Source: an uncultured bacterium (GTDB lineage Bacteria; Patescibacteriota; Dojkabacteria; J137). From it: a DNA stretch of 64,000 nt. Positions 1,564 to 43,549 of the stretch are shown here, piece after piece. A program made the translations under genes and the position numbers. The stretch is from contig OY969472.1 in NCBI GenBank assembly GCA_963700155.1, positions 1,064,690-1,128,689 of the forward strand, read 5' to 3'. The notes under the pieces are model-generated. The model was not told where the DNA came from. It made no database searches and was given only the letters and a program-made list of their open reading frames with translations. Every line of letters starts with the position of its first letter. Positions within the stretch are counted from its first letter, which is position 1.

Positions 1564-2238
1564 TTACTTGTCCAACAATTCTTTTAGATTTTGTAAGTTA
1601 GTACTCCATTCTTTCTTTTCAGTATCAAACCACTCTAATCCTTCGAATTGAAGTTTATATTTTGAGCTTGGTTCAACAACTGAACCAAGGTAGATATATT
1701 TTTTATTACTTGTTTTTGCCCATTCAATTGCTTTTGTCATCATTGCAATACCTAAATTGTTTTCTTTTGGAATATTAAGATCATAAAATGGATAAGCATA
1801 ATGGATCATTTCATTATTTATATAAGACAAACAGTAGCCTAAAGTTTTATTTACTTCGTTATATGTATAGATAAATACTGAGTTCATATTTGATTTATCA
1901 GGTTCTTGAAACATTTCCTTTATCTTTGAAGCACTCATTGTTCCGTCACCAAATTTTTGAGTGTAGAAAGTTTTACCTAGGGCATGTATTTCCCACGAAT
2001 AGTTTTCTAAAGGCAAATTTTGAACTTCTAACTTTAAATTATCATTCTTCCTAAGAATTCTTCTGTTCTCTGAATTAAGTTCAAAATTTGCTAAATTAAT
2101 TCTTAAAGATCGAGTTTGTATCATATTACCTTTTGCTGTTCTTGTTAATACAAAACCGTTATTATAGTTTTGAGTAACTTCTTCTTGATTTAATAATGGA
2201 ATACTTAATTCATCAGTTTTAAAATATTTGTTTGTCAT
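1564..2238 (-). CDS. ATE/Bpt-family aminoacyl-tRNA-protein transferase-like (GNAT fold)
   Basis: C-terminal YIYLGSVVEPSSKYKLQFEGLEW resembles the Bpt/ATE_C signature (YLGYW...YK..F.P.E.L). Size is about 224 aa, as in bacterial Bpt. Confidence 0.4.
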   Translation of the reverse strand: MTNKYFKTDELSIPLLNQEEVTQNYNNGFVLTRTAKGNMIQTRSLRINLANFELNSENRRILRKNDNLKLEVQNLPLENYSWEIHALGKTFYTQKFGDGTMSASKIKEMFQEPDKSNMNSVFIYTYNEVNKTLGYCLSYINNEMIHYAYPFYDLNIPKENNLGIAMMTKAIEWAKTSNKKYIYLGSVVEPSSKYKLQFEGLEWFDTEKKEWSTNLQNLKELLDK

Positions 2239-3812: not shown

Positions 3813-5354
3813 ATGGATGATAAAAAAAGTTCAGATTTAATTGGTCAAAGAAAACAAAGACTCGAAAAAGTTAAAAAGTTAAGAGATTTAGGTATAGACC
3901 CTTATCCAGCTAAATCTTTTAGAACTAACACTATAAAAGAAATTATTGATAACCCAGAACAATATTTGGTTGAGCAAGAAAAGAAGGGGAAAGAGGTTGT
4001 CTTAGCAGGAAGAATTACTAGTTGGAGAGGGCACGGGAAATTAGCCTTTGCTGATTTGGTAGATCAGGATGCTAAAATACAACTTTATATTAAAGATGAT
4101 GTATTGTCAGTAAAGGAGATTGAAGGTGGAAGGACACTCTCTTTTGATGAACTTGAACTAGTAGATGTTTATGATTTTATCGAGGTTTATGGTCAAATTA
4201 CTAAAACAAGAAGAGGTGAGCTTTCAATTCTTGTTAAACATTTAAGAATTTTAACTAAAGTATTAAGGCCACTGCCTACTTCACTTGAAGACAAAGAAGA
4301 AAGATTTAGAAGAAGATATGTTGATATGGCTGTTCATCCTGAAATTCGTGAACGAATGGAAAGAAGGTCACTTTTTTGGCAAGCACACAGAGAATTTTTG
4401 AATCAAAGAGGTTTTTATGAAATTAATATACCAGTTTTAGAGCATGTCCCTGGTGGTGGTGATGCTGTACCTTTTACTACACATATGAATGCTTTAGACG
4501 AGGACTTTTATCTTAGAATCTCTCATGAACTTCCATTAAAACGTCTAATTGGAGGAGGCTTTGAGAAAGTATATGATATTGGTGCAAGATTTAGAAATGA
4601 AGGATTATCTGATGAACATTTGCCCGAACATATAGCAATGGAATTTTATTGGGCATATGCGGATTGGAAAGATGGTATGAAATTTATTCAAGAATTATTT
4701 ACTTATGTTATAGGTAGAGTTTATGGTGATAAAAAAGTATTTAAAATTAGAGAATTTGAAGTAGATTTTTCAAAAGATTGGGAGATTGTTGATTTCAATA
4801 AAATAATGCAGGATAAATATGGTATCAAAAATATCTACTCAATTACTTTAGATGAAGTTAAAGAACTTCTAAGTAAAAATGAAATAGAATTTGATAGAAG
4901 CGTAAATATAGCAAGAGGTGTTGATGCATTATGGAAAAGGCTAAGAAAGACAATTCAAGGACCAGCATTTTTAGTAAATCATCCTAAATTTTTATCACCA
5001 TTACAGAAACCAAGTTTAGAAAATCCAAATATGGTTGAAAGATTTCAGCCGATTATTGCTGGAAGTGAATTAGGAAACGGCTGGAGCGAGGTTAATGATG
5101 CAGTTGATCAATATCAAAGATTTGTAGAGCAGCAAAATTTAAGAGATTCAGGAGATGCTGAAGCTCAATGGCTTGATGTTGATTACGTTGAGATGCTTGA
5201 ATATGGAATTCCACCTACATTTGGCTGGGGACATTCGGAAAGGGTTTTCTGGTTCTTAGAAGACGTTACTGCGAGAGAAGGTGTACCTTTCCCACAACTT
5301 AAAATGGATTTTGATAATATTACTAAAGAAATTTATCCAGAAGCTTTCGAGTAA
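3813..5354 (+). CDS. lysS: lysine--tRNA ligase, class II
   Basis: 513 aa with an N-terminal OB anticodon-binding domain. Class II motifs are present (FRNEGLS..H.PEH..MEFYWAY, GGGDAVPF, GWG.SERV). Confidence 0.9.
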   Translation: MDDKKSSDLIGQRKQRLEKVKKLRDLGIDPYPAKSFRTNTIKEIIDNPEQYLVEQEKKGKEVVLAGRITSWRGHGKLAFADLVDQDAKIQLYIKDDVLSVKEIEGGRTLSFDELELVDVYDFIEVYGQITKTRRGELSILVKHLRILTKVLRPLPTSLEDKEERFRRRYVDMAVHPEIRERMERRSLFWQAHREFLNQRGFYEINIPVLEHVPGGGDAVPFTTHMNALDEDFYLRISHELPLKRLIGGGFEKVYDIGARFRNEGLSDEHLPEHIAMEFYWAYADWKDGMKFIQELFTYVIGRVYGDKKVFKIREFEVDFSKDWEIVDFNKIMQDKYGIKNIYSITLDEVKELLSKNEIEFDRSVNIARGVDALWKRLRKTIQGPAFLVNHPKFLSPLQKPSLENPNMVERFQPIIAGSELGNGWSEVNDAVDQYQRFVEQQNLRDSGDAEAQWLDVDYVEMLEYGIPPTFGWGHSERVFWFLEDVTAREGVPFPQLKMDFDNITKEIYPEAFE

Positions 5355-6136: not shown

Positions 6137-7036
6137 TTAAATAGAAGTCACTTTTGTTAAATGATAATTTCGACCTATACCTTCAAACCAGGTTCTTTGT
6201 CGCTTTGCATACTGTTTGTGGGCGAATTTCACTAATTCAACACACTTTTCAAGAGAAATTCGCCCTTCTAGGTACTCTACAGCTTGTTTATATCCCATGA
6301 TTTGAAGCCCAGGATCATCTTTTTTATATCCTAATTCAAGTATTTTTTTAGTTTCTTCAATAAGCCCATCTTTAAACATTTGCTCAACTCTATTTTCAAT
6401 CTTAATTTTTAACTTATTCCAGTCATATTCTGGATATAAAAATAAGTAATCGTATTCATGTAACGTATCATTTGAAAATATATCTTTTTCAGATTGGTTT
6501 ACAATACTTCCACTTTCGGCTTTTTCTATTAGACGTATCAGTCTTCTTGGATTATTTCTATCACTTTGATTTAAACTTTCAAATTTTTGATGATCTATTT
6601 TATTTAATTGTTTTTGAAGTTCATTTATATTTAACTGCTCTAGTTTGTTTCTCAATTCTAAATCTTGTTCTTCATTTAGATTGTAATTTTTAATAATCGA
6701 ATCTATGTATAATCCTGTCCCACCAACTAAAATCGGCAGCTTGCCACGTAAGCTTATTTCTTTTATAGATTTTCGGGCAAGCTGCCTCCATTCAAAAACA
6801 TTAAATCTTTTATCTGGAGTGATTAAATTAATTAAATGAATCGGAATTTTTTCAATTAAAAATTCATTCTTATTAATTTGCTTTATTTTTCCTTTATTAG
6901 TGCCAATATCTAAATATTTATAAACCTGTCTTGAGTCTGCATTTATTAATTCTCCATTATTGTTTTTCGCAATTTCTAAAGCTATATTTGTTTTTCCCGT
7001 AGCTGTAGGACCACCTATGATTAATATCTTTTCCAT
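6137..7036 (-). CDS. miaA: tRNA dimethylallyltransferase
   Basis: N-terminal P-loop IIGGPTATGKT; length and architecture match MiaA. Confidence 0.85.
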   Translation of the reverse strand: MEKILIIGGPTATGKTNIALEIAKNNNGELINADSRQVYKYLDIGTNKGKIKQINKNEFLIEKIPIHLINLITPDKRFNVFEWRQLARKSIKEISLRGKLPILVGGTGLYIDSIIKNYNLNEEQDLELRNKLEQLNINELQKQLNKIDHQKFESLNQSDRNNPRRLIRLIEKAESGSIVNQSEKDIFSNDTLHEYDYLFLYPEYDWNKLKIKIENRVEQMFKDGLIEETKKILELGYKKDDPGLQIMGYKQAVEYLEGRISLEKCVELVKFAHKQYAKRQRTWFEGIGRNYHLTKVTSI

Positions 7037-7677: not shown

Positions 7678-9036
7678 ATGGATCAAAATGAAATCTTTCT
7701 AAGAATATTAATCACTATTGTATTAGGTGCAGTGCTTGGTCTTGAAACTGAAACTAGAGCTATTGAATCAGAAGGAAAAAAACAAGCTACCCGTGAAGAG
7801 AAAAGAAAAATAGGAGGTTTAAGGACTTATACAGTTCTTTCACTTTTTGGTGGTATTGCTGGAATATTTTATTTAGCAGGTCTAAATATTATTGTATATA
7901 TTTTCTTTATTTCGGTAATGGCCTTCACTATTGCTGCTTATATTTTGAATGTTCAGTTAAAAAAAGCTTTCGGTTTAACAACAGAAATTGCAATTGTTTT
8001 AACATTTGCATTAGGATTTTTAACTACTTCAGCTGTAATACCTTTGCCTGTTGTTATGTTAGCAATAGTTTTATTAACCTTCTTTTTATCACAAAAAAGA
8101 GGTATTGGAGCTGCAATTCAAAAAATACAACATAAAGAAGTGATTGATGTAATAAAATTCGGATTAATTTCTATAGTTATACTGCCTTTGCTCCCAAATC
8201 AAGATATTTTATTAGGTAATATTACACATTTAATAGATCCTACTATATCTATTGCACCTTCATTATCAAATATTGTTTTGATAAATCCGTTTCAAATTTG
8301 GCTTTTAGTAGTATTAATTTCAGGAATAAATTTATTGGCTTATGTTTTAAGTAAATTTTTAGGAAAACAAAAAGGAGTTTTTTTTGCAGGGATTTTCGGT
8401 GGATTAGTATCTTCTACATCAGCAGTTATCTCTTTAGGATTAAAATCTAAAAACGAAAAGAAAGTTGAGAATTCAAAATTATTTTCTGGTGTTGCTTTAA
8501 TTGCAAATTCATTTAGTTTTTTAAGTATTGGGCTTTTAGCTTTTATCACAAGTAAACAATTATTTATTGAACTACTTCCTGTAATGTTACTAATGTTTTT
8601 AACTGGTTTATTAGTCGCTTTTTATTTAGCAAATAAAAGTGATAAAGATGTTAACCAAGAACATAATAATTTAGGATTAAAATATGAAGCTTTTTCAATT
8701 GGGCCAGCAATTAGATTTGTAACATTAATTGTAATTATAAAGTTAGTCGTTCAATTATTGTTAGTACAGAATGTAGATAAGGGAGTCTTAATTGCTATAA
8801 CATCACTTTCTGGTTTAACTGGAATGGATGCAGCTGTAATTGCTTTTGGACAGCTAGTAAATAATTCTGTTATTACCTTAAGTACTGGAATTATCGCCTT
8901 TATGCTTTCAAATTATATAAATTTCTTGGGAAAGTCTGTTTACAGTTTTTTATTCTCAGAGAGAAGATATTTTATTTATTTAACTTTAGGACTAATAGTT
9001 GTAAGTATTTTTGGTGCTTTAGGATTATTGTTGTAA
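7678..9036 (+). CDS. MgtC/SapB family membrane protein with DUF4010-like C-terminal region
   Basis: N-terminal FLRILITIVLGAVLGLETE matches the MgtC signature (LGxxIGxERE). Polytopic membrane protein of about 450 aa. Confidence 0.55.
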   Translation: MDQNEIFLRILITIVLGAVLGLETETRAIESEGKKQATREEKRKIGGLRTYTVLSLFGGIAGIFYLAGLNIIVYIFFISVMAFTIAAYILNVQLKKAFGLTTEIAIVLTFALGFLTTSAVIPLPVVMLAIVLLTFFLSQKRGIGAAIQKIQHKEVIDVIKFGLISIVILPLLPNQDILLGNITHLIDPTISIAPSLSNIVLINPFQIWLLVVLISGINLLAYVLSKFLGKQKGVFFAGIFGGLVSSTSAVISLGLKSKNEKKVENSKLFSGVALIANSFSFLSIGLLAFITSKQLFIELLPVMLLMFLTGLLVAFYLANKSDKDVNQEHNNLGLKYEAFSIGPAIRFVTLIVIIKLVVQLLLVQNVDKGVLIAITSLSGLTGMDAAVIAFGQLVNNSVITLSTGIIAFMLSNYINFLGKSVYSFLFSERRYFIYLTLGLIVVSIFGALGLLL

Positions 9037-9046
9037 AATCATTTCT

Positions 9047-9364
9047 ATGAAAAAATTTACTAAGAATGATGAAGGTTTTATATGTTTCAATTGTAGAAAA
9101 GAAGTTGAACAACTTAATAATTCAAGCAGAGATCACTGTAATTTTTGCTTATATGGATTACATGTTGATATAAATCCAGGGGATCGATTGAATGACTGTA
9201 AAGGTGTTTTAGAACCTATTGGTTTAAAGACTTCTAATGGAAAGACTCAGATTGCATATAAATGCCAGAAATGTGGGAAAATTATTTATTGTAAAAAAGC
9301 TGAAGATGATAATCCAAATAAAATTTTAGAATTAAATACAAAAATCTGGGAGGATTCTAATTAA
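9047..9364 (+). CDS. small zinc-ribbon protein, RNHCP-like
   Basis: 105 aa with several CxxC pairs (CFNC, CNFC, CQKC); RDHCNFC resembles the RNHCP motif. Confidence 0.35.
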   Translation: MKKFTKNDEGFICFNCRKEVEQLNNSSRDHCNFCLYGLHVDINPGDRLNDCKGVLEPIGLKTSNGKTQIAYKCQKCGKIIYCKKAEDDNPNKILELNTKIWEDSN

Positions 9365-10130
9365 CAAAACATTTTAATCGCCTAATTCCATTATCTTCAA
9401 CATTAATCTTATATCCTTCTAAAGTGTGTTTTACTCCATCTTCATCGGATTCAAGCCATTCTTGATCTTGTAGGGGTTTATTTATATCTAAAATATTAAT
9501 AACACCTTCACGAATACCATTTTCTTTCCCAAAATATGGTGAAGAATGAATATATTTTATTTGAGTAACTGGTGTATTTTCTTTTGAATCATCTCTGGTT
9601 ACTTCTGAAACTAACATTACATGATGAGCGTTATTTTTTTTACCTTTACTTCTAATTAAGTCCCCAGGTCTAACATCATTTAATTCAACAGCTATAGAAT
9701 TATCATCATCAGTAACTATATCAGCTCCCATATTTTCAGCTGGTCTTAAAAAGTATCTTAACTTCCAGATAGGAGATTTTTGAAGAGGAGTTAATTCGCC
9801 CCATAATGGTTTATTTTCTTTTTCTTTATGCCATACATTAAGTAGGTGAACAACAAAACCAGAACAATCAATACCTATGCCTCTATTTATTAAAAACTCT
9901 TTTATTTCATCGGGCGACATATTATCAAAGTCAACTCCCTTAACTTTTTCCCAAATCTTTGCTTCAACCTCAATTTCATCAGGTGTCCCTTTCCCAACCA
10001 TTGCTCTTAAGTCTTTTCTTCTTTTGTCATTAATATAATATGGAGTTACTACCTCTTTATTGCCTAGTTTAAGTTTCTTATAAGAGTTAATCAAGTTTTT
10101 CACAACATCAGGAATTGTTTCAGTTACCAT
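9357..10130 (-). CDS. cytoplasmic NlpC/P60 (papain-like) family amidase/peptidase
   Basis: GIDCSGFV catalytic Cys motif plus HHVMLV His; no signal peptide. The likely true start is the ATG at 10130, 2 nt after the TAA of the upstream ATP-grasp gene, which suggests translational coupling. Confidence 0.5.
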   Translation of the reverse strand: MVTETIPDVVKNLINSYKKLKLGNKEVVTPYYINDKRRKDLRAMVGKGTPDEIEVEAKIWEKVKGVDFDNMSPDEIKEFLINRGIGIDCSGFVVHLLNVWHKEKENKPLWGELTPLQKSPIWKLRYFLRPAENMGADIVTDDDNSIAVELNDVRPGDLIRSKGKKNNAHHVMLVSEVTRDDSKENTPVTQIKYIHSSPYFGKENGIREGVINILDINKPLQDQEWLESDEDGVKHTLEGYKINVEDNGIRRLKCFVN

Positions 10131-10132
10131 AA

Positions 10133-11563
10133 TTATTTTAATAAATTTTCTAAGACTTTCATTGCTTCTATCACCCAAGGAGTGACTTTATTATTATATA
10201 CTATTTGATTTTGAAATTGCATTCTAGCTACTTCTTCATATTTATCCTTGATAGAATTTTGATTTTGAACTAATAGTACAAAACCACCATCTGTAATTTG
10301 ATCTACTGAATAACCATCTTTTTGCCAAACTAGTGGCTTATCTTTTTCCTCATCAATGAATATTACCTTTTCTTTTCTTTCTGGTGAACCAGAACTCCAG
10401 TCGAAAGCACTATTGTCACTTTGAAGCCTATAGATTCCAGAGTCGAGGTGAGTTTTGATTTGGAATTTGTCTTGCTTTGCTCTTAAGAATATTTGTGAAC
10501 CTTCAAGTTGATTAATTCTCTCCTCAGGAGAAAAACTCACCTCGACTCCTAAGAACTCAGCTAAATGTAATAATTCAAGTGGAATTTGATCCTGCTGAAT
10601 CTCAAGTTTTGTCTGCATTGATATATTTGCTGTTTGACGTGCATTAATTTCAATTATAAATATTTCATTATCTTTTATTATTAAGTCTATTCCAAATAAT
10701 CCTTTAAACCCTTTCTCTTTCATAATATTTCCAATCTTTTCAGTTTCATTAAAAATTTTAGATTTTATTTCTTCTGCTAAAGAATTTGCTAAGCTCCAGT
10801 CATTACCTACTGTAGAACCTTTTCCAGCAGTAAGTTCTTCATAGCCTGTAATTTGATATTGAAGGCCACAAATAAATATTCCATTCTTAGTAACACAACC
10901 ATTAATTGTATAAGGTTCGCCTTCAATAAATTCTGATAGTTTTACAATATTCCCAGAATAATTATTTTTAAAATTATTAAATTCATCTTCATTGGTAATA
11001 ATGAAAGTTCCAATACCTGTATGAGCTCTATCTAATTGAATCACAAACTTTTCTCCGTAATCTTTTGATATCGAATTATATTCATCATCAATCACCTCTT
11101 TTACTTCAGTTTTAGGTGTTAATATACCGTTTTCATGCAAAATCTTGGTCTGAGATAACTTATCTTCAAACATTCTATTTAAAGTTGCACTATTATTTAA
11201 AATTGTTCCTCCAAGATTTTGAAGGTTTAAATATGTTGGATTATTAAATTGGAAAAGTTGAGCATAAAACTTCCCATTCGTAACTTTCTTTAACCACTCG
11301 ATAGTTTTTGGATGGTTTATTAAATTTAATGTTGAATTAGTTTTAAGCTCAATACCTTCAGATTGAGCACAAAAAATTCTACTGGGATAAGTTTTTGAAA
11401 TTTCTTGTGTTATATAACTTTCATCTATACAAACTATGTAGTAGTTATCTAAATAATTTTCCAATCCTAGAGCTCTTTCAGCATCTTTTGCAAAATAAAT
11501 GATTCTGTTATCTTTTGTTAATTCATTAATTTTATCTAGTAGTTCTTGAGTTTTATTATTCAT
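10133..11563 (-). CDS. ATP-grasp fold ligase with an extra N-terminal domain
   Basis: C-terminal half carries GLFGIDLI...IIEINAR (the ATP-grasp E-x-N signature). Confidence 0.6.
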   Translation of the reverse strand: MNNKTQELLDKINELTKDNRIIYFAKDAERALGLENYLDNYYIVCIDESYITQEISKTYPSRIFCAQSEGIELKTNSTLNLINHPKTIEWLKKVTNGKFYAQLFQFNNPTYLNLQNLGGTILNNSATLNRMFEDKLSQTKILHENGILTPKTEVKEVIDDEYNSISKDYGEKFVIQLDRAHTGIGTFIITNEDEFNNFKNNYSGNIVKLSEFIEGEPYTINGCVTKNGIFICGLQYQITGYEELTAGKGSTVGNDWSLANSLAEEIKSKIFNETEKIGNIMKEKGFKGLFGIDLIIKDNEIFIIEINARQTANISMQTKLEIQQDQIPLELLHLAEFLGVEVSFSPEERINQLEGSQIFLRAKQDKFQIKTHLDSGIYRLQSDNSAFDWSSGSPERKEKVIFIDEEKDKPLVWQKDGYSVDQITDGGFVLLVQNQNSIKDKYEEVARMQFQNQIVYNNKVTPWVIEAMKVLENLLK

Positions 11564-11565
11564 AA

Positions 11566-11829
11566 TTATTTATCTTTTTGTCTTTTAATCCATTGTTTCT
11601 TCAGTATCTCTAAAGAAAGAGTTGATAAGAAAAATCCAATAGTAGGAATCAAAGCACTTAAATAAAAGTCTTGAATTCCTATTACATATAAAATTAAACA
11701 CATAACAATATATGTTAGTCCAGTTATGAGTCCTTTTCTTAACCAACTTGTTTCCCAAGCTTTATCTAATTCAACTCTTTTATTACGAGCCTTTAAAAGC
11801 ATTATCTCTTTTTCTAAATTTTTGTTCAT
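11566..11829 (-). CDS. small 2-TM membrane protein
   Basis: 87 aa with a charged N-terminus and two hydrophobic helices. Its ends are within a few nt of both neighbouring cluster genes. Confidence 0.35.
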   Translation of the reverse strand: MNKNLEKEIMLLKARNKRVELDKAWETSWLRKGLITGLTYIVMCLILYVIGIQDFYLSALIPTIGFFLSTLSLEILKKQWIKRQKDK

Positions 11830-12344
11830 TTTAATTTATATAAATAATATCTACCTATGGTTTTATCTGGTTCTTTATCTGAGAATTTAAAAGTATTTGT
11901 AATTATAATACTGTTTTTAGGCATTTCGCTAAATAATTTATCTTTTAACTTATCAATCTGCTCATTAAATATATAGAGATATGCTACATTATATCTTGAA
12001 AAATCATGTTTAAAAAAGTCCTTATTATGAATTTCAGTATTATTTTTTTTAGTTGTTAGAAGTCTTAATCTACTTAACAGTGATAAATATGGGTTAAATT
12101 CAATTCCCTCTGACTTTTCACAATAATCAGCCATCATTTTTACAATTCTTCCATCCCCTGAACCAATATCAATGAAATTAGTCGGTTTAGGAAGAATAAT
12201 TTCTTTTGAATCAATCAATTCTTTTAGTTTTTTTGCTGAAGAAGGATAAAATGGAGTCTGATTTAACCATGACCAAATTAGATATAATCCTCCAACTGCC
12301 AATAATATTTCAAATCCAAAAAAACCGATTAACATAAAATTCAT
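11826..12344 (-). CDS. class I SAM-dependent methyltransferase with N-terminal TM helix
   Basis: Motif I FIDIGSGDGRIV; 172 aa. Confidence 0.5.
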   Translation of the reverse strand: MNFMLIGFFGFEILLAVGGLYLIWSWLNQTPFYPSSAKKLKELIDSKEIILPKPTNFIDIGSGDGRIVKMMADYCEKSEGIEFNPYLSLLSRLRLLTTKKNNTEIHNKDFFKHDFSRYNVAYLYIFNEQIDKLKDKLFSEMPKNSIIITNTFKFSDKEPDKTIGRYYLYKLK

Positions 12345-12362
12345 TTATATTTTTTTAATAAA

Positions 12363-13313
12363 TTATCTACCTGATGCGATACAAATAACTTTCTTAGGAT
12401 TATAATTTTCTTTTACTTTAAGAAAACCTGCAATTGAAAGAAGTGAGTTATAAGAAAGATCATTTATATCTTTTGATTTAACAAATTTTTCAGTCTCTAT
12501 TAACTCATCATTAGTAATTTTCAAGATATCTCCATTGCATTCTTTAATAATTTTTAAAACTTGTGGAGATCTTAATCCAGATGAGTCAATAATTGCATCT
12601 GCCAAACTTTCAGATTCGGATGATACAGTAGATTGGTTATTTAAGGAATCATAAAAAGGATGTACTTTTTCAGTTTGGCAGACAAAAAGTTTAGGCATGA
12701 AAAATTCATTACCTAACTTCATAAATAATCCTTGAGATAATCCTACAAATCCAGAACCTGAAGAGGCTGGGCAAAAAATTAAAACATCTTGATTACTTTC
12801 CTGCCTGTTTAAAAATTCGGTTAATTCAATCCCTAAGCTCCAATAACCTTTTAAAGCATCTTCATCAACAGCAGACTTCAAATTTGGAATATTTTTTTCG
12901 ACAGAGATCTGAACTGCTTTCTTTTTAGGATTAAAATCTCGATAAAATGCTTCAGTATTTTTATCTAACAAGCGTATTAATAATTCTTGTTTTTCCTGAT
13001 TTATGTCATTTTTAACAACTACATATAATTTAAAGTTTAAATTTAATTTTTTTATATATGACCAATAACTAATTGCTGCATTTCCTGAAGTAGAGATAAC
13101 TCCTTCATGAACTCCTTCTGATAATAATTTTGTGAGTTTATAAGCTGTTGCACGATCTTTCCACGAACCAGTTGGATTTTGATCTTCTCTTTTTATAATA
13201 ACTTCTATATTTTCAAATTTAAATTTGTTAGTAGGTGTATTACCTTCTTGGAGTGTAATAACATTGCCTTCATCAACTTCTTTTCTTAGTTCTTTAAAGT
13301 CCCAGATACTCAA
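12363..13313 (-). CDS. PLP-dependent fold-type II enzyme (threonine synthase / cysteine synthase-like)
   Basis: NPTGSWKDRATAY contains the PLP-lysine motif (S-x-KDR) of the PALP family; 316 aa. Confidence 0.55.
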   Translation of the reverse strand: MSIWDFKELRKEVDEGNVITLQEGNTPTNKFKFENIEVIIKREDQNPTGSWKDRATAYKLTKLLSEGVHEGVISTSGNAAISYWSYIKKLNLNFKLYVVVKNDINQEKQELLIRLLDKNTEAFYRDFNPKKKAVQISVEKNIPNLKSAVDEDALKGYWSLGIELTEFLNRQESNQDVLIFCPASSGSGFVGLSQGLFMKLGNEFFMPKLFVCQTEKVHPFYDSLNNQSTVSSESESLADAIIDSSGLRSPQVLKIIKECNGDILKITNDELIETEKFVKSKDINDLSYNSLLSIAGFLKVKENYNPKKVICIASGR

Positions 13314-13396
13314 GTTATTTATTTTAAAAAGTAGTAAAATTAACCTATATTATCAATTATGATACAATTTTTAATTAAAATATTATATACCAATAT

Positions 13397-13777
13397 ATGA
13401 ATGATGACGATACAACTAAATTAAATAATGATGATAGTGGAGACGAAAGTGTTATGAATGAAAATAATGAAATGACAGAGAATGTAGATACTCAGGAAGA
13501 ATCAATGGAAGAAACAACATCAACTGATGAAGTACCATCTGACTGGATTAAAGTAACAAATGGAAAGTTTGTCTGTGGTGAATGTGAAAATGAAAGTGAG
13601 CCTGAAACAAACACTGTTGATGGAACAGTAAAAGCAGATACCGAGAAGATAAAATCAGATCTTAAAGCATTCCCTTCAAAAATAATTTATGGATCATGTC
13701 CTGTTTGTGGAATGGAATATACTTTTAAAGAAAAAAATGGTGAATTGTATATGGAACCTAGTGATATGATTAAGTAA
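13397..13777 (+). CDS. acidic protein with C-terminal zinc ribbon
   Basis: 126 aa; the N-terminal 50 aa are D/E-rich; CGECE...CPVCG pairs. Confidence 0.4.
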   Translation: MNDDDTTKLNNDDSGDESVMNENNEMTENVDTQEESMEETTSTDEVPSDWIKVTNGKFVCGECENESEPETNTVDGTVKADTEKIKSDLKAFPSKIIYGSCPVCGMEYTFKEKNGELYMEPSDMIK

Positions 13778-17364: not shown

Positions 17365-19605
17365 TTAATAATTTCCACTATATCCAGGAGGAAGTGTTAG
17401 TTTACCAACTAGTCTATCTTTAAAACTATCTAAACTATCAAGTATTTGAACTCTTGATAAAAAATATCGTCCAGAATATCGATTATCAATTGCTCCTCCA
17501 CAACTAAACCCAAGAAGATATCCATCATTAATTTCATAATTTACTGAATTCCCATTAACTGCACAATAAGGGTAAGCTATAGCTATCACATCTTTCCCAG
17601 TAATGGCTTCAATAGCTGCTTTACTTCCTCCTATTTGTGTTTGTAAATCACTTGAGCTTGTTAGTTTTGATAAATCAGAATGTGACACAGTATGTGATTC
17701 TATTGACATTCCATTTTTACTCATCTCTTTTATTTGATCGTTAGTCAAGAATAATGAACCTGAAATTAAGAAAAATGTTGCCTTAAGATCATATTTTTTT
17801 AAAATAGGATAAGCAGCAGTGTATTGAGAATTAGTTCCATCATCAAATGTAATAAGAACTGATTTTTGACTTGGATTTTTATCTTCCTTTAAATCATTAT
17901 AATATTCTTCTATTGTTAGTGATCTATAATTATTTTTTACTAAATATGCCATTTGTTGTTCAAAAATTTCAGGAGATACATAATATTCTTTTGTATAGTT
18001 GTTTGGAGGTGTTTCAATACGATGGTACATTAATACAGGAATCCTAACTGTATTAACAGGTTGATATACTGGGGTAGGTGAATCTGTATCAAGATTATCG
18101 ACAGTTGTGTTGAAATCTTTTTCAATAATACTTTTATAATCGTCTCCGATATCATATATATAAAAGATATTTGCAGCAATAATATCTCCTTTTTTTTTGT
18201 TTATTAAATTAAGATTTAAATATTCATTGTCTGAATTTGGAATATATTGAACTAAGTAAGAGAATATTTTTGATAGATCTTCTCGTTGTGAAGTAGAAAA
18301 AGAATTATTTAATCCAATTAAAGTATAAAGTTTCTCGAAGTTGTTAAGTAAATTATTATTATTTTCTGAAGTATAGTTGTAAAAATCAAAAATTTCTTTT
18401 TGGTATGCAGTTAAATAAATTAATCGCAACAGTACATCATTATTAGCAGCTAAGTATATATTATTATAATTTTGTAGAGCTTTATCTATTTCTGATGGTT
18501 CAACTAGAGTATCTTTATTATAAAAATTCATATAAGAAGAAACTGAAATAGCATCTTTTTGTGAATTATTTCCTACCAAAGGATTTAATGTCCAAAGCAA
18601 TATATCATCAATATTATCTACTGGTGATGTGTCTTGGCTTTTCGTTAATTTGGTTTGAGAACCTATTTTAGCTAGAATTGAATCATAATTTTTCTTACTC
18701 TCATTTAATCCTAAAACTTGTGAATCATTTCTATTCTTTAATAGAGATGCTTGAATATTTCTTATATCAATATTATCTGCGGAGGATACATTAATAGATT
18801 CATAAAAAGTTTTAAATTTATTGTCCGATGGTTTTAATGAATAAAAGTTAAATGTTTCGAAATCATTATTAATATTTGAAACTTCATTTTGCTGAGCAAT
18901 ACTTTGAATTAAAACTAATTTATAAAATGAATTCACATTTGGATCACCAAAATAATCATTAAATTTACTCCATGCTTCCTCTAAAGAAGATGACGTATTC
19001 TTATTTATAAGTGTGGAGATATTGTCTAATAGTTCAATATTATTTGAAATTGCAGCTGATATATTTGAATCATAAAATGTAAAAATTCTTTTTAAAGTTT
19101 CAGAATATTTAAGAGAATTGATTATTGAGTGAAAATGATTTCGTAAAACCTCATTGTAAAATTTTATTTTTTCATTACGAATGATATTAAGTGATGAATT
19201 AATTATAAAATTATCATTTATCTGAATAGGTGTCTTATTATTTACTAAAGTAAGATAATTAAAGTCATTTGAGACTTTAGAACTTGTTTCACCTAAATTT
19301 AAAAACTCTACTTCGTTTTTATACGATAAACTATATGTTTTTCCTAGGCTTATATAACTATCAGGAAGTTTATTAAGTGAAGTATCATTAATATTTCCAG
19401 TGATAAATTTTGAACTACTATATTTTATCCCTGAGCTGAAATTATAACTTGGATACTCTGAAAAATTTAAGTTATAGGTTTGTTTTGAAATTATAAAATA
19501 ACTTCCTAAAATTAATACAAATCCTAAAGTTATAAATAGAATGCTACGTGGATTCAAATGAGAATTCTTTAATTTTTGTTCAATATATTTAGAAATATAG
19601 TACAT
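17365..19605 (-). CDS. large membrane-anchored extracytoplasmic protein with C-terminal polysaccharide deacetylase (CE4/NodB) domain
   Basis: N-terminal TM; C-terminal RIPVLMYHRIE...ITFDDGT..QY...P.L.KY...ATFF is typical of CE4 deacetylases. Confidence 0.6.
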   Translation of the reverse strand: MYYISKYIEQKLKNSHLNPRSILFITLGFVLILGSYFIISKQTYNLNFSEYPSYNFSSGIKYSSSKFITGNINDTSLNKLPDSYISLGKTYSLSYKNEVEFLNLGETSSKVSNDFNYLTLVNNKTPIQINDNFIINSSLNIIRNEKIKFYNEVLRNHFHSIINSLKYSETLKRIFTFYDSNISAAISNNIELLDNISTLINKNTSSSLEEAWSKFNDYFGDPNVNSFYKLVLIQSIAQQNEVSNINNDFETFNFYSLKPSDNKFKTFYESINVSSADNIDIRNIQASLLKNRNDSQVLGLNESKKNYDSILAKIGSQTKLTKSQDTSPVDNIDDILLWTLNPLVGNNSQKDAISVSSYMNFYNKDTLVEPSEIDKALQNYNNIYLAANNDVLLRLIYLTAYQKEIFDFYNYTSENNNNLLNNFEKLYTLIGLNNSFSTSQREDLSKIFSYLVQYIPNSDNEYLNLNLINKKKGDIIAANIFYIYDIGDDYKSIIEKDFNTTVDNLDTDSPTPVYQPVNTVRIPVLMYHRIETPPNNYTKEYYVSPEIFEQQMAYLVKNNYRSLTIEEYYNDLKEDKNPSQKSVLITFDDGTNSQYTAAYPILKKYDLKATFFLISGSLFLTNDQIKEMSKNGMSIESHTVSHSDLSKLTSSSDLQTQIGGSKAAIEAITGKDVIAIAYPYCAVNGNSVNYEINDGYLLGFSCGGAIDNRYSGRYFLSRVQILDSLDSFKDRLVGKLTLPPGYSGNY

Positions 19606-30238: not shown

Positions 30239-31285
30239 TTAGTTAATCGTAAGTCTATACTTTGTACCTCTTCCTTGGCCTTCAATCTTAACTAGTTTTT
30301 TTCTTACAAGATCATTAAGGTCTCTAAATGCAGTCATTGTAGAAACTTCCATCATATGACAATAATCTTCACGTTTAATAGAAGGTACTGTTTGTAGGTA
30401 TCGTAAAACTTTAAGTTGTCTCTTATTTAAGTCTAAAAATGGTTGACTCTTTGATGTTTCCTCTTCTTTAATGAATTCTGAAATATTTTCTCTGGTTTCT
30501 AATTGTTCTTGTGTCAAGGTTTGTGTAAAAACTTCAAGCCAATTTGATATTTCAAAATTAGTTCGACTTATATTGTAAGCTTCTATTAATTTCTGCTCGT
30601 TATTATCAAAATTTCTTACTATAGAAGTAAAAACTCGGTATGATAGATTATTCTTATATAATAGATAATTTGCCAATGCAATTATTGTTACCTTATTTCC
30701 CGCAATAAATGGGTATAATTCAATTATTCTATAAATAAAAACACCAATCCTAATAATTGGAGTGACAGTTGGTGTTACATCTCGATACCACTGAATTACT
30801 TCGATAACCTCCTGTTCTAATCTTGCTGAATCTATATCTTTATCCCTTAACTCACTCCAATTATCAGTTGTAGTATCAATTTCATCACTAATATTTCTAA
30901 ACCTTGCTTCCCAATTTTCTTTCCAATCAGAAACAATCATTTTATGAATATGATTTACAATACTTAAATCTATTTCTGAATAACTCTCTGAAGCATTTGA
31001 TTGCGTAAAATCTATGAGATGTTTGAAATTAATTAATATTTGAAGTTTTATTGGATCAATACTTTCAATTGTCATTCCTGTGCTAAGCTTTTCAGCATCT
31101 TTTAAAGTTATTTCAACTCCTAAAATATGTGCTAAATGAAACATATCATATATTTTTGTTGAAAGATTCATTTTAAATTTAGAATCTTGTGATAAATCAA
31201 TATCTTGAAGTGTAGTTTTATAGTTTTCTAGTCTAACAAGTTCTGTAACTAGTTTATCAGTATATTTAAATTGAGGTTGATACAT
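30239..31285 (-). CDS. Fic/DOC-fold-like protein with degenerate active-site motif and C-terminal winged-helix DNA-binding domain
   Basis: YPFIAGNKVTII aligns to HPFx[DE]GNGRxxR, with His replaced by Tyr and GR replaced by KV. The preceding ...WEARFRN fits the Fic core. The C-terminus (LRYLQTVPSIKREDY...TAFRDLNDLVRKKLV) is a wHTH. The start is probably the internal ATG at 31285; the ORF-track start at 31366 adds an AT-rich hydrophobic artefact. Confidence 0.35.
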   Translation of the reverse strand: MYQPQFKYTDKLVTELVRLENYKTTLQDIDLSQDSKFKMNLSTKIYDMFHLAHILGVEITLKDAEKLSTGMTIESIDPIKLQILINFKHLIDFTQSNASESYSEIDLSIVNHIHKMIVSDWKENWEARFRNISDEIDTTTDNWSELRDKDIDSARLEQEVIEVIQWYRDVTPTVTPIIRIGVFIYRIIELYPFIAGNKVTIIALANYLLYKNNLSYRVFTSIVRNFDNNEQKLIEAYNISRTNFEISNWLEVFTQTLTQEQLETRENISEFIKEEETSKSQPFLDLNKRQLKVLRYLQTVPSIKREDYCHMMEVSTMTAFRDLNDLVRKKLVKIEGQGRGTKYRLTIN

Positions 31286-31394
31286 ATTAGAGATGATAAT
31301 ACATAAGTGATATTTAAATAATACTATAATGTTACGAAAAAGCAAAAAAATTAATTTAAGAATCACTATATGCTATATTCACTAAGTATAAAGT

Positions 31395-41464: not shown

Positions 41465-42166
41465 TTATTTTATATTGAATATAAGTCTATAAAGTTTTTT
41501 AACTAATTTTTTTACATAACTAGTATGATCAAGAAGTATTACTAAGATACAAAACCATACTATTCCTAAACAGTAACTTGCTAATACATCACTGGTCCAA
41601 TGAACTCCAAGATAAATTCTTGAAATACCAATTAATAAAGTTAGTACAATACCTAAGAAAATTACAAAATACTCAAAATATTTATTTTTTATTGCTCTAG
41701 CTAAGAAATAAAATATAACACCATAAAAGGTTACAGCTATAATAGTATGAGCGCTTGGGAAGCTAAAGTTGTTTTCTATAACTAACGCATAATTAATGGG
41801 TGGTCTGGGTCTTTCAATTATAAACTTAATTATAGTGACAAAAATTATATTAAAAACTAGAGAAATTAATAATACTAATGCATAATATTTATGTCTTTTT
41901 ATAATTAATATTGTTGTGACGAATATTACAACAATAGTAAGTTCTAAAGGATTGCCAAGAGATGTGATTAGTAAGAAAAAAGTGTTAAGCTTTTCGTTTC
42001 TATTAGTATAAATAAAATTTAATATTTGACTATCTAAAATTGTTATTGCTTCTTTTTCGACCACATTATCCAATAGTTTTATAAATACTATTAAGGAAAC
42101 AAATGCTACAAAAAGAAGTATTATTAACCTTTTATTATTCTTTAAATTATTGAAAATTTTATCCAC
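41465..42166 (-). CDS. PAP2-family membrane phosphatase (undecaprenyl-diphosphatase-like)
   Basis: KX6RP (ERPRPP), PSAHT and SRIYLGVHWTSDV motifs. The ORF-track start at 42253 runs 19 codons into the tRNA-Gly gene. A GTG at 42166 is the first plausible start clear of the tRNA; the exact start is uncertain. Confidence 0.55.
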   Translation of the reverse strand: MDKIFNNLKNNKRLIILLFVAFVSLIVFIKLLDNVVEKEAITILDSQILNFIYTNRNEKLNTFFLLITSLGNPLELTIVVIFVTTILIIKRHKYYALVLLISLVFNIIFVTIIKFIIERPRPPINYALVIENNFSFPSAHTIIAVTFYGVIFYFLARAIKNKYFEYFVIFLGIVLTLLIGISRIYLGVHWTSDVLASYCLGIVWFCILVILLDHTSYVKKLVKKLYRLIFNIK

Positions 42167-42195
42167 ATTATTTTTTACACCAAAATTGTAAGAAA

Positions 42196-42268
42196 AGCGA
42201 ATGACGAGGCTCGAACTCGCAACCTCTTCCTTGGCAAGGAAGCGTTCTACCAATTGAACTACATTCGC
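42196..42268 (-). tRNA. tRNA-Gly (anticodon GCC)
   Basis: Reverse complement folds as GCGAAUG...; anticodon stem CUUCC/GGAAG; loop UUGCCAA; T-arm GCGAGUUCGAGCCUCGU; discriminator U. Confidence 0.85.
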
Positions 42269-42376: not shown

Positions 42377-43549
42377 ATGAAAGATTATAAAAAACAACCA
42401 AAAATATTAATTACAGGTGGACATTTGACTCCTGCTATAGCAGTACTTTCAGAGTTAAAAAAGAGAGGTTACCAGAATTTTCTATGGGTTGGGCATAAAT
42501 ACAATCAACTTGGCAATAAACAACTTTCACCCGAATATCAAATTGTAACAATGAACAATATCCCATTTTTAAACTTAAGAACAGGTAAGATAATTAGAAG
42601 TAGAGATTTAAAATCTTTTTTTCAATTAATTAAACAAATATTTTTAATCAAATTCGGTTTAATTAAGTCGTTTTTTATAATATTAAAATACAGACCAAGT
42701 ATAGTACTTTCATTTGGTGGTTATTTGGCTGTTCCAGTCGTTATTAATGCAAAATTATTTAGAACTAAGGTTTTGACTCATGAACAAACAATTGTTGTAG
42801 GTTCAGCTAACAAATTAATCTCAAAATTAGCCGATAAAATTTTAATAAGTTGGGATTCTTCAAGAAAATATTTTAATGCAAAAAAAACAATTTTAACTGG
42901 AAATCCAATAAGGAGAGACATTTTTAAAGTTAAATCTGAAACTTTAACTCAATCATTTAATAATGAATTACCCATCCTTTTAATTTATGGTGGTAATCAA
43001 GGATCTCATGAAATAAATTTTAGGGTTTTTGATATTCTTGAAGAATTTTTAAACGATTTCAATATTATTCACCAGACTGGTAATTCATCTGTTACCAATG
43101 ATTTCACAAAAGCTAAACAATTAAAATTAAGATTAAATACTGTCTTAAAAGATAGATATACTATAAGAGACTATATTCTTCCTAACGAAATTGGTGAAGC
43201 ATTAAATAAAGCTGATATTATACTATGCAGAGCAGGTGCTAATAGTATTTCTGAGATTTTAGCTTTAGGAAAAATGTCTGTCTTAATTCCAATTCCTTGG
43301 GCTTCTCATGATGAACAAACTAAAAATGCTGAATTAGTTGCAAGTACAGGATTAGGATATATTTTAAAACAAAAAGATTCATTGACCTCTCAAACTTTAT
43401 TTCAAACAATATTACTTGCTAATAATCAATTAAAATCTGGTAAAGGATTTAACAATAAATCAATTGATGAATGTAAAGAAATTGCTAAACAATATATTAT
43501 CTTAGATGCACCATCTAAAGTTGCAGATGAACTTGAGAAGTTACTTTGA
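42377..43549 (+). CDS. murG: MurG-like undecaprenyldiphospho-muramoylpentapeptide beta-N-acetylglucosaminyltransferase (GT28)
   Basis: N-terminal ILITGGHLTPAIAV matches the G-loop of MurG; C-terminal GT-B domain; 390 aa. Confidence 0.7.
   Translation: MKDYKKQPKILITGGHLTPAIAVLSELKKRGYQNFLWVGHKYNQLGNKQLSPEYQIVTMNNIPFLNLRTGKIIRSRDLKSFFQLIKQIFLIKFGLIKSFFIILKYRPSIVLSFGGYLAVPVVINAKLFRTKVLTHEQTIVVGSANKLISKLADKILISWDSSRKYFNAKKTILTGNPIRRDIFKVKSETLTQSFNNELPILLIYGGNQGSHEINFRVFDILEEFLNDFNIIHQTGNSSVTNDFTKAKQLKLRLNTVLKDRYTIRDYILPNEIGEALNKADIILCRAGANSISEILALGKMSVLIPIPWASHDEQTKNAELVASTGLGYILKQKDSLTSQTLFQTILLANNQLKSGKGFNNKSIDECKEIAKQYIILDAPSKVADELEKLL

Follow-up and report, generated by a model that had tools for sequence, protein, structure and literature searches.

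A conserved gene module of the Patescibacteria that joins a LysW-like zinc ribbon to a PLP enzyme, an ATP-grasp ligase and an NlpC/P60 hydrolase among peptidoglycan precursor genes

Introduction

The LysW amino-group carrier protein (AmCP) system of Thermus and archaea (LysW-LysX-LysZ-LysY-LysJ-LysK), whose AmCP-dependent counterpart in Streptomyces makes non-proteinogenic amino acids, is built around a small acidic zinc-ribbon carrier with a flexible EP...-type tail. The tail ends in EDWGE, and the gamma-carboxylate of the terminal Glu carries the substrate. An ATP-grasp ligase of the LysX/ArgX (RimK) type loads the carrier, a fold-type-I pyridoxal phosphate (PLP) aminotransferase, LysJ, modifies the load, and an M20 metallopeptidase, LysK, releases it. 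To our knowledge, LysW-type carriers have so far been known only with a Glu tail, from lysine and arginine biosynthesis and a few natural-product pathways. Here we describe a gene cluster in a 64,000-nucleotide stretch (the window; contig OY969472.1 of assembly GCA_963700155.1) from an uncultured member of the Dojkabacteria, in which a PLP enzyme, an ATP-grasp ligase and an NlpC/P60 hydrolase are encoded beside a LysW-like protein that ends in Lys. The Dojkabacteria belong to the Patescibacteria, or candidate phyla radiation (CPR), which makes up a very large, mostly uncultured share of bacterial diversity and is marked by minimal genomes with few biosynthetic pathways.

Other described systems share parts of this logic. 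In the CysO-CysM-Mec+ system of Mycobacterium tuberculosis, the C-terminus of a small carrier protein serves as the nucleophile for a PLP beta-replacement enzyme of fold type II, and a dedicated protease then frees the amino acid. In tubulin tyrosination, a residue encoded at the C-terminus of an acidic tail is removed by a papain-superfamily peptidase (the papain-like carboxypeptidase vasohibin) and re-added by the ATP-grasp enzyme TTL. Glutathionylspermidine synthetase/amidase is a fusion that couples an ATP-dependent ligase to an opposing papain-like amidase. YkfC and other NlpC/P60 gamma-D-Glu-L-diamino-acid endopeptidases are cytoplasmic enzymes with a Cys-His-His/Asn triad that release a C-terminal diamino acid. 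Our literature search found no description of a system that combines a LysW-like protein with PLP, ATP-grasp and NlpC/P60 enzymes.

Results

A five-gene operon conserved across the CPR

The cluster lies in AT-rich DNA (~28% GC in the window) and comprises the following features:

12363..13313, minus strand: PALP, a fold-type-II PLP enzyme of 316 aa (Pfam PALP 9.6e-32)
11826..12344, minus strand: class-I S-adenosylmethionine (SAM) methyltransferase of 172 aa with an N-terminal transmembrane helix, resembling archaeal protein-lysine N-methyltransferases (aKMT)
11566..11829, minus strand: small membrane protein of 87 aa, translationally coupled to its neighbours
10133..11563, minus strand: ATP-grasp carboxylate-amine ligase of 476 aa (Pfam ATP-grasp_3 7e-16)
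9357..10130, minus strand: NlpC/P60 (C40) cysteine hydrolase of 257 aa
13397..13777, plus strand: LysW-like zinc ribbon of 126 aa, divergent from PALP
13314..13396, unstranded: divergent intergenic region of 83 bp between the LysW-like gene and the PALP-led operon, presumed to be a shared promoter or regulatory site

The original prediction, which covered the five minus-strand genes and stopped short of the LysW-like gene, had taken them for an operon-like unit of co-directional genes with tight junctions. The layout of the open reading frames (ORFs) bore this out: PALP and the methyltransferase gene are 18 nt apart, the methyltransferase gene and the 87-aa ORF overlap by 4 nt, and gaps of 2 nt separate the 87-aa ORF from the ATP-grasp gene and the ATP-grasp gene from NlpC/P60. 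PALP starts at a TTG that gives MSIW..., in agreement with the N-termini of its homologues. For NlpC/P60, the ATG at 10130 fits the homologue N-termini, and the longest ORF reaches a TTG at 10178. A promoter scan placed its best minus-strand match at 13410..13382 and several plus-strand matches at 13323..13386. However, promoter and terminator matches in the AT-rich window were not enriched over shuffles, so that the scan was uninformative and the promoter-like matches in the intergenic region are weak evidence.

We scanned an alignment of the ATP-grasp protein against one genome per GTDB species and obtained 366 related loci, 80 of which were retrieved for analysis with flanks of 6-9 kb. ORFs were labelled by hidden Markov models; some of the counts given here are based on 80 loci and others on 83. 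The lineages named among the loci were Dojka-, Uhr-, Magasanik-, Pacei- and Taylorbacteria, all of the Patescibacteria, and some metagenome-assembled genomes carried generic labels, 'Saccharibacteria' or 'Gammaproteobacteria', that we judged unreliable. Of the 80 loci, 77 had the NlpC/P60 gene, and in 73 no more than 400 bp separated it from the ATP-grasp gene. PALP was found inside the flank in 50 of the 80 and directly upstream of the ATP-grasp gene in 42. The methyltransferase was confined to a subset of the Dojkabacteria (~31 of 83 loci). Synteny of the PALP, methyltransferase, ATP-grasp and NlpC/P60 quartet, which had been set beforehand as a check, was found in distant relatives. Because the arrangement recurs in 80 species-level genomes while the flanking genes change, it is more than a chance association, and the five genes form a real operon with conservation across the CPR.

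The coupling of ligase and hydrolase that had been suggested from the window is real as well, as shown by the adjacency of the two genes and by a natural fusion: in one locus (L055, 5914-8040, plus strand) a single 709-aa ORF encodes ATP-grasp and NlpC/P60 together. The L055 genome is labelled 'uncultured Gammaproteobacteria', which is probably the wrong label for a CPR genome.

Taken together, the conserved core of the module is a LysW-like carrier, a fold-type-II PLP enzyme, an ATP-grasp ligase and a cytoplasmic NlpC/P60 hydrolase.

A LysW-like protein with an invariant C-terminal lysine

The question had been raised whether the 87-aa ORF, or a short ORF nearby, could encode a precursor peptide. 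A small-protein partner does exist, at 13397..13777 on the plus strand, and it is a LysW-like zinc ribbon, not the 87-aa ORF. Judged by its sequence, this protein looks like a carrier protein and the sixth partner of the cluster. Its homologues are 53-90 aa long and, when aligned, share an invariant CxxC...CxxC pattern (four Cys) and an invariant C-terminal Lys that follows acidic residues. The Pfam model PF21344 (Zn_ribbon_LysW) matched 22 of 27 family members, with a best E-value of 3.6e-12, and the family profile matched the LysW structures 5k2m_E (2e-6), 3wwl_A (7e-6) and also 3vpb. The E-values for these short proteins are modest, and the divergent window copy falls below PF21344 on its own.

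A database search found 1313 clusters of the family. All of the best 120 end in Lys, with the tails DEGK in 106, EEEK in 10 and others in 4. Among the copies found in the loci, 50 of 51 have the terminal Lys. The tail reads DMIK in the window lineage and EMMK in near relatives, and Lys is the sole invariant residue of the tail, which argues against attachment through a Glu side chain.

In the window protein, the conserved core runs from ~13544 to the stop and ends in ...EPSDMIK, with an insert of ~20 aa between the two CxxC knuckles. The core is preceded by an N-terminal extension of ~48 aa (13397..13543, plus strand) that is highly acidic, of low complexity and rich in D, E, T and N. Only the nearest relatives have this extension (122-142 aa compared with 53-65 aa elsewhere), and the true start of the gene may lie further downstream.

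The LysW-like gene accompanies PALP closely. Of the 50 loci with PALP, 48 contain it, 45 of them at no more than 450 bp from PALP, and the other two were both cut by contig ends. The divergent arrangement of the two genes is kept in most loci. Where PALP is distant from the ATP-grasp gene (~4 kb; L059, L066, L081 and L082), the LysW-like gene moves along with PALP. In inversion variants (L022, L023 and L042), it lies directly upstream of the ATP-grasp and NlpC/P60 genes and is co-directional with them. Reciprocal searches seeded by three LysW-like proteins recovered the same module in all three cases.

The PLP enzyme

The PALP family profile matched PDB entries for threonine synthase (ThrC, 1.6e-31), serine racemase (1.7e-22), aspartate racemase (1e-19) and SbnA/CysM (~1e-14), and also threonine and serine dehydratases. 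Its invariant features are the PLP-binding Lys52 (GSxKDR) and an SSSGN loop. This pattern of similarity places the family between ThrC, the serine and aspartate racemases and the SbnA/CysM beta-replacement enzymes. We also considered whether the window protein is a genuine threonine synthase and ruled this out: its best score with the NCBIfam ThrC models was 93 bits against a cut-off of 358 bits, and an alignment to 2zsj showed an SSGT loop where ThrC has the GNAGN phosphate loop.

The ATP-grasp ligase and the NlpC/P60 hydrolase

The AlphaFold2 model of the ATP-grasp protein (predicted local distance difference test, pLDDT, 94.2) has the three-domain fold of the family, with the ATP-binding Lys and the E-x-N Mg2+ motif. 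The invariant residues are K135, E305, N307 and R309 (EINARQ motif), and a beta-rich C-terminal extension of ~130 aa is specific to the Dojkabacteria. The nearest folds were PylC with L-Lys (top), PurK, and L-amino-acid or peptide ligases, including BacD, RizA, BesA, PGM1 and 8ynd. The protein stayed below every NCBIfam cut-off, the best being 130 against 684 bits for PRK06524 ('biotin carboxylase'). These scores and the fold search ruled out RimK, Ddl, biotin carboxylase and LysX as identities, and they upheld the earlier expectation that the enzyme is not a housekeeping ligase such as RimK or a D-Ala ligase. Sequence-only searches of the PDB with the ATP-grasp and NlpC/P60 proteins gave no matches.

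The last gene of the operon encodes a bona fide NlpC/P60 (C40) hydrolase. Its score with the Pfam NLPC_P60 model is below the gathering threshold; its AlphaFold2 model (pLDDT 92.8) has the papain-like alpha+beta fold with a Cys-His-polar triad, in which C89 and H170 are invariant and position 195 is H or N. The N-terminal domain of ~80 aa (PYYIN...GKGTPEEI) is conserved and specific to the family, and a DNGxRRL motif lies toward the C-terminus. On inspection of the sequence, no N-terminal hydrophobic signal was visible, suggesting that the enzyme is probably cytoplasmic. By analogy with characterized relatives, it may act on gamma-D-Glu-diamino-acid amides.

The methyltransferase and the 87-aa membrane protein

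The methyltransferase has the class I motifs DxGSGDGR and GIExNP and a hydrophobic N-terminus. The most consistent match was to the archaeal protein-lysine N-methyltransferase model NF041081, which 16 of 18 family members matched, the best at 2.7e-18 and below the cut-off; the window protein scored 26.7 bits against a cut-off of 200 bits. The similarity suggests a resemblance to the aKMT enzymes. One methyltransferase match, in locus L046, proved to be an unrelated PCMT-type enzyme and not a member of the family.

The 87-aa ORF had no operon counterpart in the other 83 loci, nor in the two nearest relatives of the window (L086 and L087). In these, whose ATP-grasp proteins are 61% and 56% identical to that of the window, the methyltransferase and ATP-grasp genes adjoin each other, and no ORF intervenes. 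The protein belongs to a large family of uncharacterised small membrane proteins with 676 representatives at E<=1e-3. Fusions of its members to domains of the DFP, flavokinase, Ham1, GNAT or DUF218 type make the family look like a promiscuous small membrane module. Its absence from the operon elsewhere, together with the breadth of the family and the fusions to unrelated domains, ruled out the 87-aa protein as a precursor or carrier. The ORF is a real gene and a lineage-specific accessory insertion outside the conserved system.

Linkage to peptidoglycan precursor genes

Across the 83 loci, the neighbours of the module included MraY (37 loci), a MurC/Mpl-type ligase with a YPPxS motif (21), an ATE-like transferase (20) and MurB (11). 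In non-Dojkabacteria CPR the recurrent order was MurB, ATP-grasp, NlpC/P60, MraY, ATE/Bpt-like, MurC/Mpl, LysW-like (on the opposite strand), PALP and MurD, and in loci reached from the LysW-like gene MurD flanks PALP. In a subgroup of the Dojkabacteria (L030, L032, L035 and L039), Mpl directly follows NlpC/P60 and MraY lies a few genes upstream. The neighbouring Mur ligase scored almost equally with the MurC and Mpl models, below the cut-offs of both. The module is thus tied by genomic linkage to peptidoglycan precursor synthesis. The earlier idea of a small-molecule or peptide-modification system did not hold in the form of a sporadic cluster, since the module is CPR-wide and lies among mraY, murB, murC/mpl and murD. 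Near the module in two Dojkabacteria loci (L046:10228-11676 and L048:6569-8011) are proteins of the Mur ligase family whose N-terminal extension is hydrophobic and apparently anchors them in the membrane.

The window has a candidate for one of these neighbours at a distance:

1564..2238, minus strand: ATE/Bpt-like aminoacyl-tRNA transferase of 224 aa, a possible distal member, 7 kb from the operon

The protein matched Pfam ATE_C at 9e-9 and the copy in L059 at E=1e-62; the NCBIfam arginyltransferase models gave 1e-15, below their cut-offs. In other CPR, its orthologues stand inside the module (MraY, ATE, MurC/Mpl), beside MraY in 20 of 83 loci, and this position between mraY and murC/mpl suggests a FemX-like role in peptidoglycan synthesis. 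In the window, the gene lies 1.6 kb from a lysyl-tRNA synthetase gene (3813..5354, plus strand; NF001756 1.8e-139), a proximity that may be coincidence.

Comparison with described systems

The module resembles the LysW/AmCP system in its logic and in its carrier fold and departs from it in lacking the Glu tail, the LysX-type ligase and the M20 hydrolase. The shared traits are the small acidic zinc ribbon with its flexible tail, of the form EP...DEGK where that of LysW is EP...EDWGE, and, by analogy, the division of labour, in which the ATP-grasp enzyme would load, the PLP enzyme modify and the hydrolase release. The final LysW intermediate, Lys held through its alpha-amine, is mimicked here by an encoded terminal Lys. 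However, the tail is DEGK, EEEK or DMIK instead of EDWGE, the hydrolase is an NlpC/P60 cysteine enzyme instead of LysK, the ligase is not of the LysX/ArgX type, and the PLP enzyme is ThrC-like and of fold type II, whereas LysJ is of fold type I. Moreover, the module has no kinase or reductase, its neighbours are peptidoglycan genes, and it is restricted to the CPR as far as seen.

The CysO system differs in its carrier, a ThiS/MoaD beta-grasp protein with a GG-thiocarboxylate where the protein here is a zinc ribbon ending in Lys, in its release by a JAMM metalloprotease, and in its reactivation by the E1-like MoeZ, whereas here an ATP-grasp enzyme is present. The ATP-grasp::NlpC/P60 fusion in L055 is comparable to glutathionylspermidine synthetase/amidase, but the N-terminal CHAP amidase and GspS-type synthetase of that enzyme were not found. 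The hydrolase has the catalytic fold of YkfC, and its release of a diamino acid would be analogous; unlike YkfC, it has no SH3b domains and carries its own N-terminal domain and the DNGxRRL motif instead.

Other genes in the window and around the module

An RNHCP-domain zinc protein (9047..9364, plus strand) converges on the NlpC/P60 gene and is followed by MgtC/DUF4010 (7678..9036, plus strand) and MiaA (6137..7036, minus strand), a trio kept only in the nearest Dojkabacteria relatives (L004-L006, L010 and L014). Elsewhere in the window, other envelope genes encode a protein of 746 aa whose C-terminal domain is a polysaccharide or peptidoglycan deacetylase (17365..19605, minus strand), a PAP2 phosphatase (41465..42253, minus strand) and MurG (42377..43549, plus strand). 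The window also encodes a Fic-domain protein (30239..31366, minus strand). A TraG/VirD4-like P-loop ATPase, a type IV secretion coupling protein, is encoded at 46129..48081 (minus strand), and genes like it border the module in other CPR loci. In 24 Dojkabacteria loci, a family of ~348 aa without confident annotation is found beside the LysW-like gene or downstream of NlpC/P60 (for example L013:8679-9722).

Discussion

We propose, tentatively and with somewhat less than even confidence, that the module is a carrier-protein pathway in which the PLP enzyme modifies the terminal Lys of the carrier, NlpC/P60 releases the product and the ATP-grasp enzyme reloads the carrier, so that peptidoglycan synthesis is fed. 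The carrier would present its C-terminal Lys with the alpha-amine locked in a peptide bond, as LysW does in the last step of lysine biosynthesis. From a free amino acid (serine, phosphoserine or phosphohomoserine, for example), the PLP enzyme would make an electrophilic aminoacrylate-type intermediate, which it would add to the free epsilon-amine of the tethered Lys by chemistry of the SbnA or CysM/CysO type. In the Dojkabacteria, the membrane-anchored aKMT-like methyltransferase might also N-methylate the product. NlpC/P60 would then cut before the C-terminal diamino acid, on its amino side, and free the modified Lys, much as YkfC acts on L-Ala-gamma-D-Glu-Lys, and the ATP-grasp enzyme would spend ATP to join a fresh Lys to the truncated carrier, which could be used again. 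The product, probably a diamino or otherwise modified amino acid for peptidoglycan-precursor enzymes, would be consumed by the neighbouring MurC/Mpl, MurD, MraY and ATE-like transferase. We infer here the bond that each enzyme makes or breaks, the identity of the substrates and the use of the product. The proposal is favoured because it gives a necessary role to each conserved gene and explains the lysine theme that appears in four independent lines of evidence.

Several observations weigh against this proposal. The main weakness is that the nearest folds of the ATP-grasp enzyme activate small-molecule carboxylates, not protein C-termini. The penultimate residue of the tail varies (G, E, I or M) and would have to be tolerated by the reloading ligase. 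The LysW-like gene is mostly on the strand opposite PALP and is therefore not co-transcribed with it. In ~30 loci, the ATP-grasp and NlpC/P60 genes occur without PALP or LysW within 6 kb, and in many CPR the ATP-grasp/NlpC-P60 pair is parted from the PALP/LysW pair by MraY, ATE and MurC/Mpl, so that the two pairs could be independent units. Near the operon of the window itself there is no mraY or murC/mpl, and in small genomes, where dcw-type clusters are compact, closeness to mur genes may be due in part to that compactness. Finally, the substrate and the product named above are guesses.

An unlikely but serious alternative reverses the polarity of the pathway. The ATP-grasp enzyme would acylate the epsilon-amine of the carrier Lys with a free amino acid, in the manner of PylC or a D-aspartate ligase, the PLP enzyme would act on the tethered residue, and NlpC/P60 would cut the isopeptide bond and so regenerate the carrier with no need to reload Lys. 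One option would be the racemisation of a gamma-linked Glu or beta-linked Asp to the D-form, which would supply a D- or modified amino acid for MurD or the cross-bridge. Several features are in accord with this scheme. PylC with L-Lys is the top fold match of the ATP-grasp protein, and the matches that follow (L-amino-acid ligases, BesA, PGM1 and 8ynd) use a small-molecule carboxylate and an amine acceptor. The L059 orthologue matches the PylC model, at 37 bits against the 248-bit cut-off of TIGR03909, and the window protein is not among the matches. Serine and aspartate racemases are among the good matches of the PALP family, and a Ser precedes the GN of the family's SSSGN loop, at the position of the second catalytic base of serine racemase. 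Relatives of NlpC/P60 cleave gamma-D-Glu amides, and MurD is the flanking gene of PALP in loci reached from the LysW-like gene. On the other hand, a lysine-N-methyltransferase-like enzyme in the same operon would block the anchoring amine unless it has another target, and racemisation of a tethered residue by a PLP enzyme has no known precedent. Neither pylB (radical SAM) nor pylD (dehydrogenase) is found in the neighbourhood, and neither PylC nor the pairs of D-aspartate ligase and racemase are known to partner with NlpC/P60 and a LysW-like protein. According to PMC11974145, which cites the work as its reference 104, the glutamate racemase of Saccharimonas, a CPR member, is experimentally active. 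D-Glu supply is thus not a gap common to the CPR and is weakened as a general explanation.

It is also possible, if rather improbable, that two independent units merely share a cell-wall neighbourhood. The ATP-grasp enzyme would then be a peptidoglycan ligase like D-aspartate ligase that builds side chains or cross-bridges on the Lys epsilon-amine of UDP-MurNAc-peptide, NlpC/P60 would edit or recycle stem peptides as YkfC does, and PALP with the zinc ribbon, as a small subunit or regulator, would be a separate amino-acid supply. The parted pairs, which most non-Dojkabacteria CPR have, and the ~30 loci without PALP or LysW speak for this arrangement, as do the position of ATP-grasp and NlpC/P60 directly between murB and mraY and the identity of the neighbour as a MurC/Mpl-family ligase with the Mpl-like YPPxS motif. 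However, the counts of absent PALP and LysW are limited by retrieved flanks that reach only 6 kb. In the Dojkabacteria, the genes form one tight operon with junctions of 0-18 nt, and in the inversions (L022, L023 and L042) the LysW-like gene still directly precedes ATP-grasp and NlpC/P60 on the same strand. Moreover, the invariant C-terminal Lys of a LysW-family carrier would be left unexplained.

A secondary-metabolite cluster, in which an unusual amino acid from the PLP enzyme is modified by the methyltransferase, the ATP-grasp enzyme forms a dipeptide conjugate and NlpC/P60 is an activating or self-resistance amidase, would match the rhizocticin/bacilysin-type logic of systems found in the literature (a ThrC-like PLP enzyme with L-amino-acid ligases) and the fold neighbours BacD, RizA, BesA and PGM1, but it is very improbable because the module is kept broadly, in 366 or more species-level genomes that are ~1 Mb in size and have minimal metabolism, and also in view of its linkage to core mur and mraY genes, its conserved carrier protein and the finding that no transporter, nonribosomal peptide synthetase or resistance genes travel with it in the retrieved loci.

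Returning to the carrier-protein pathway that we favour, its fullest form would be that the Patescibacteria use a LysW-type carrier with a reversed tail (Lys in place of Glu), together with the PLP enzyme, the ATP-grasp ligase and NlpC/P60, to build a non-canonical cell-wall amino acid, which would make it a new carrier-protein-dependent branch of peptidoglycan precursor biosynthesis. This amino acid could be a D-amino acid or a lysine derivative, namely a diamino-dicarboxylic acid of the lysinoalanine type. Stated in full, this is a speculative claim that we regard as distinctly unlikely to hold in every part. Nonetheless, the module is kept in hundreds of species genomes beside mraY and mur genes by organisms that retain few pathways, and it is therefore likely to be important for the CPR envelope. 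The concept of the carrier protein would be broadened by a large family in which the tail Lys is invariant and the partner enzymes are of different classes. The module could also reveal unusual peptidoglycan chemistry in the CPR and could give a lineage-specific target or marker. If the proposal is true, a carrier-dependent branch of peptidoglycan synthesis would be near-universal in the CPR, and thus in a large share of bacterial diversity.

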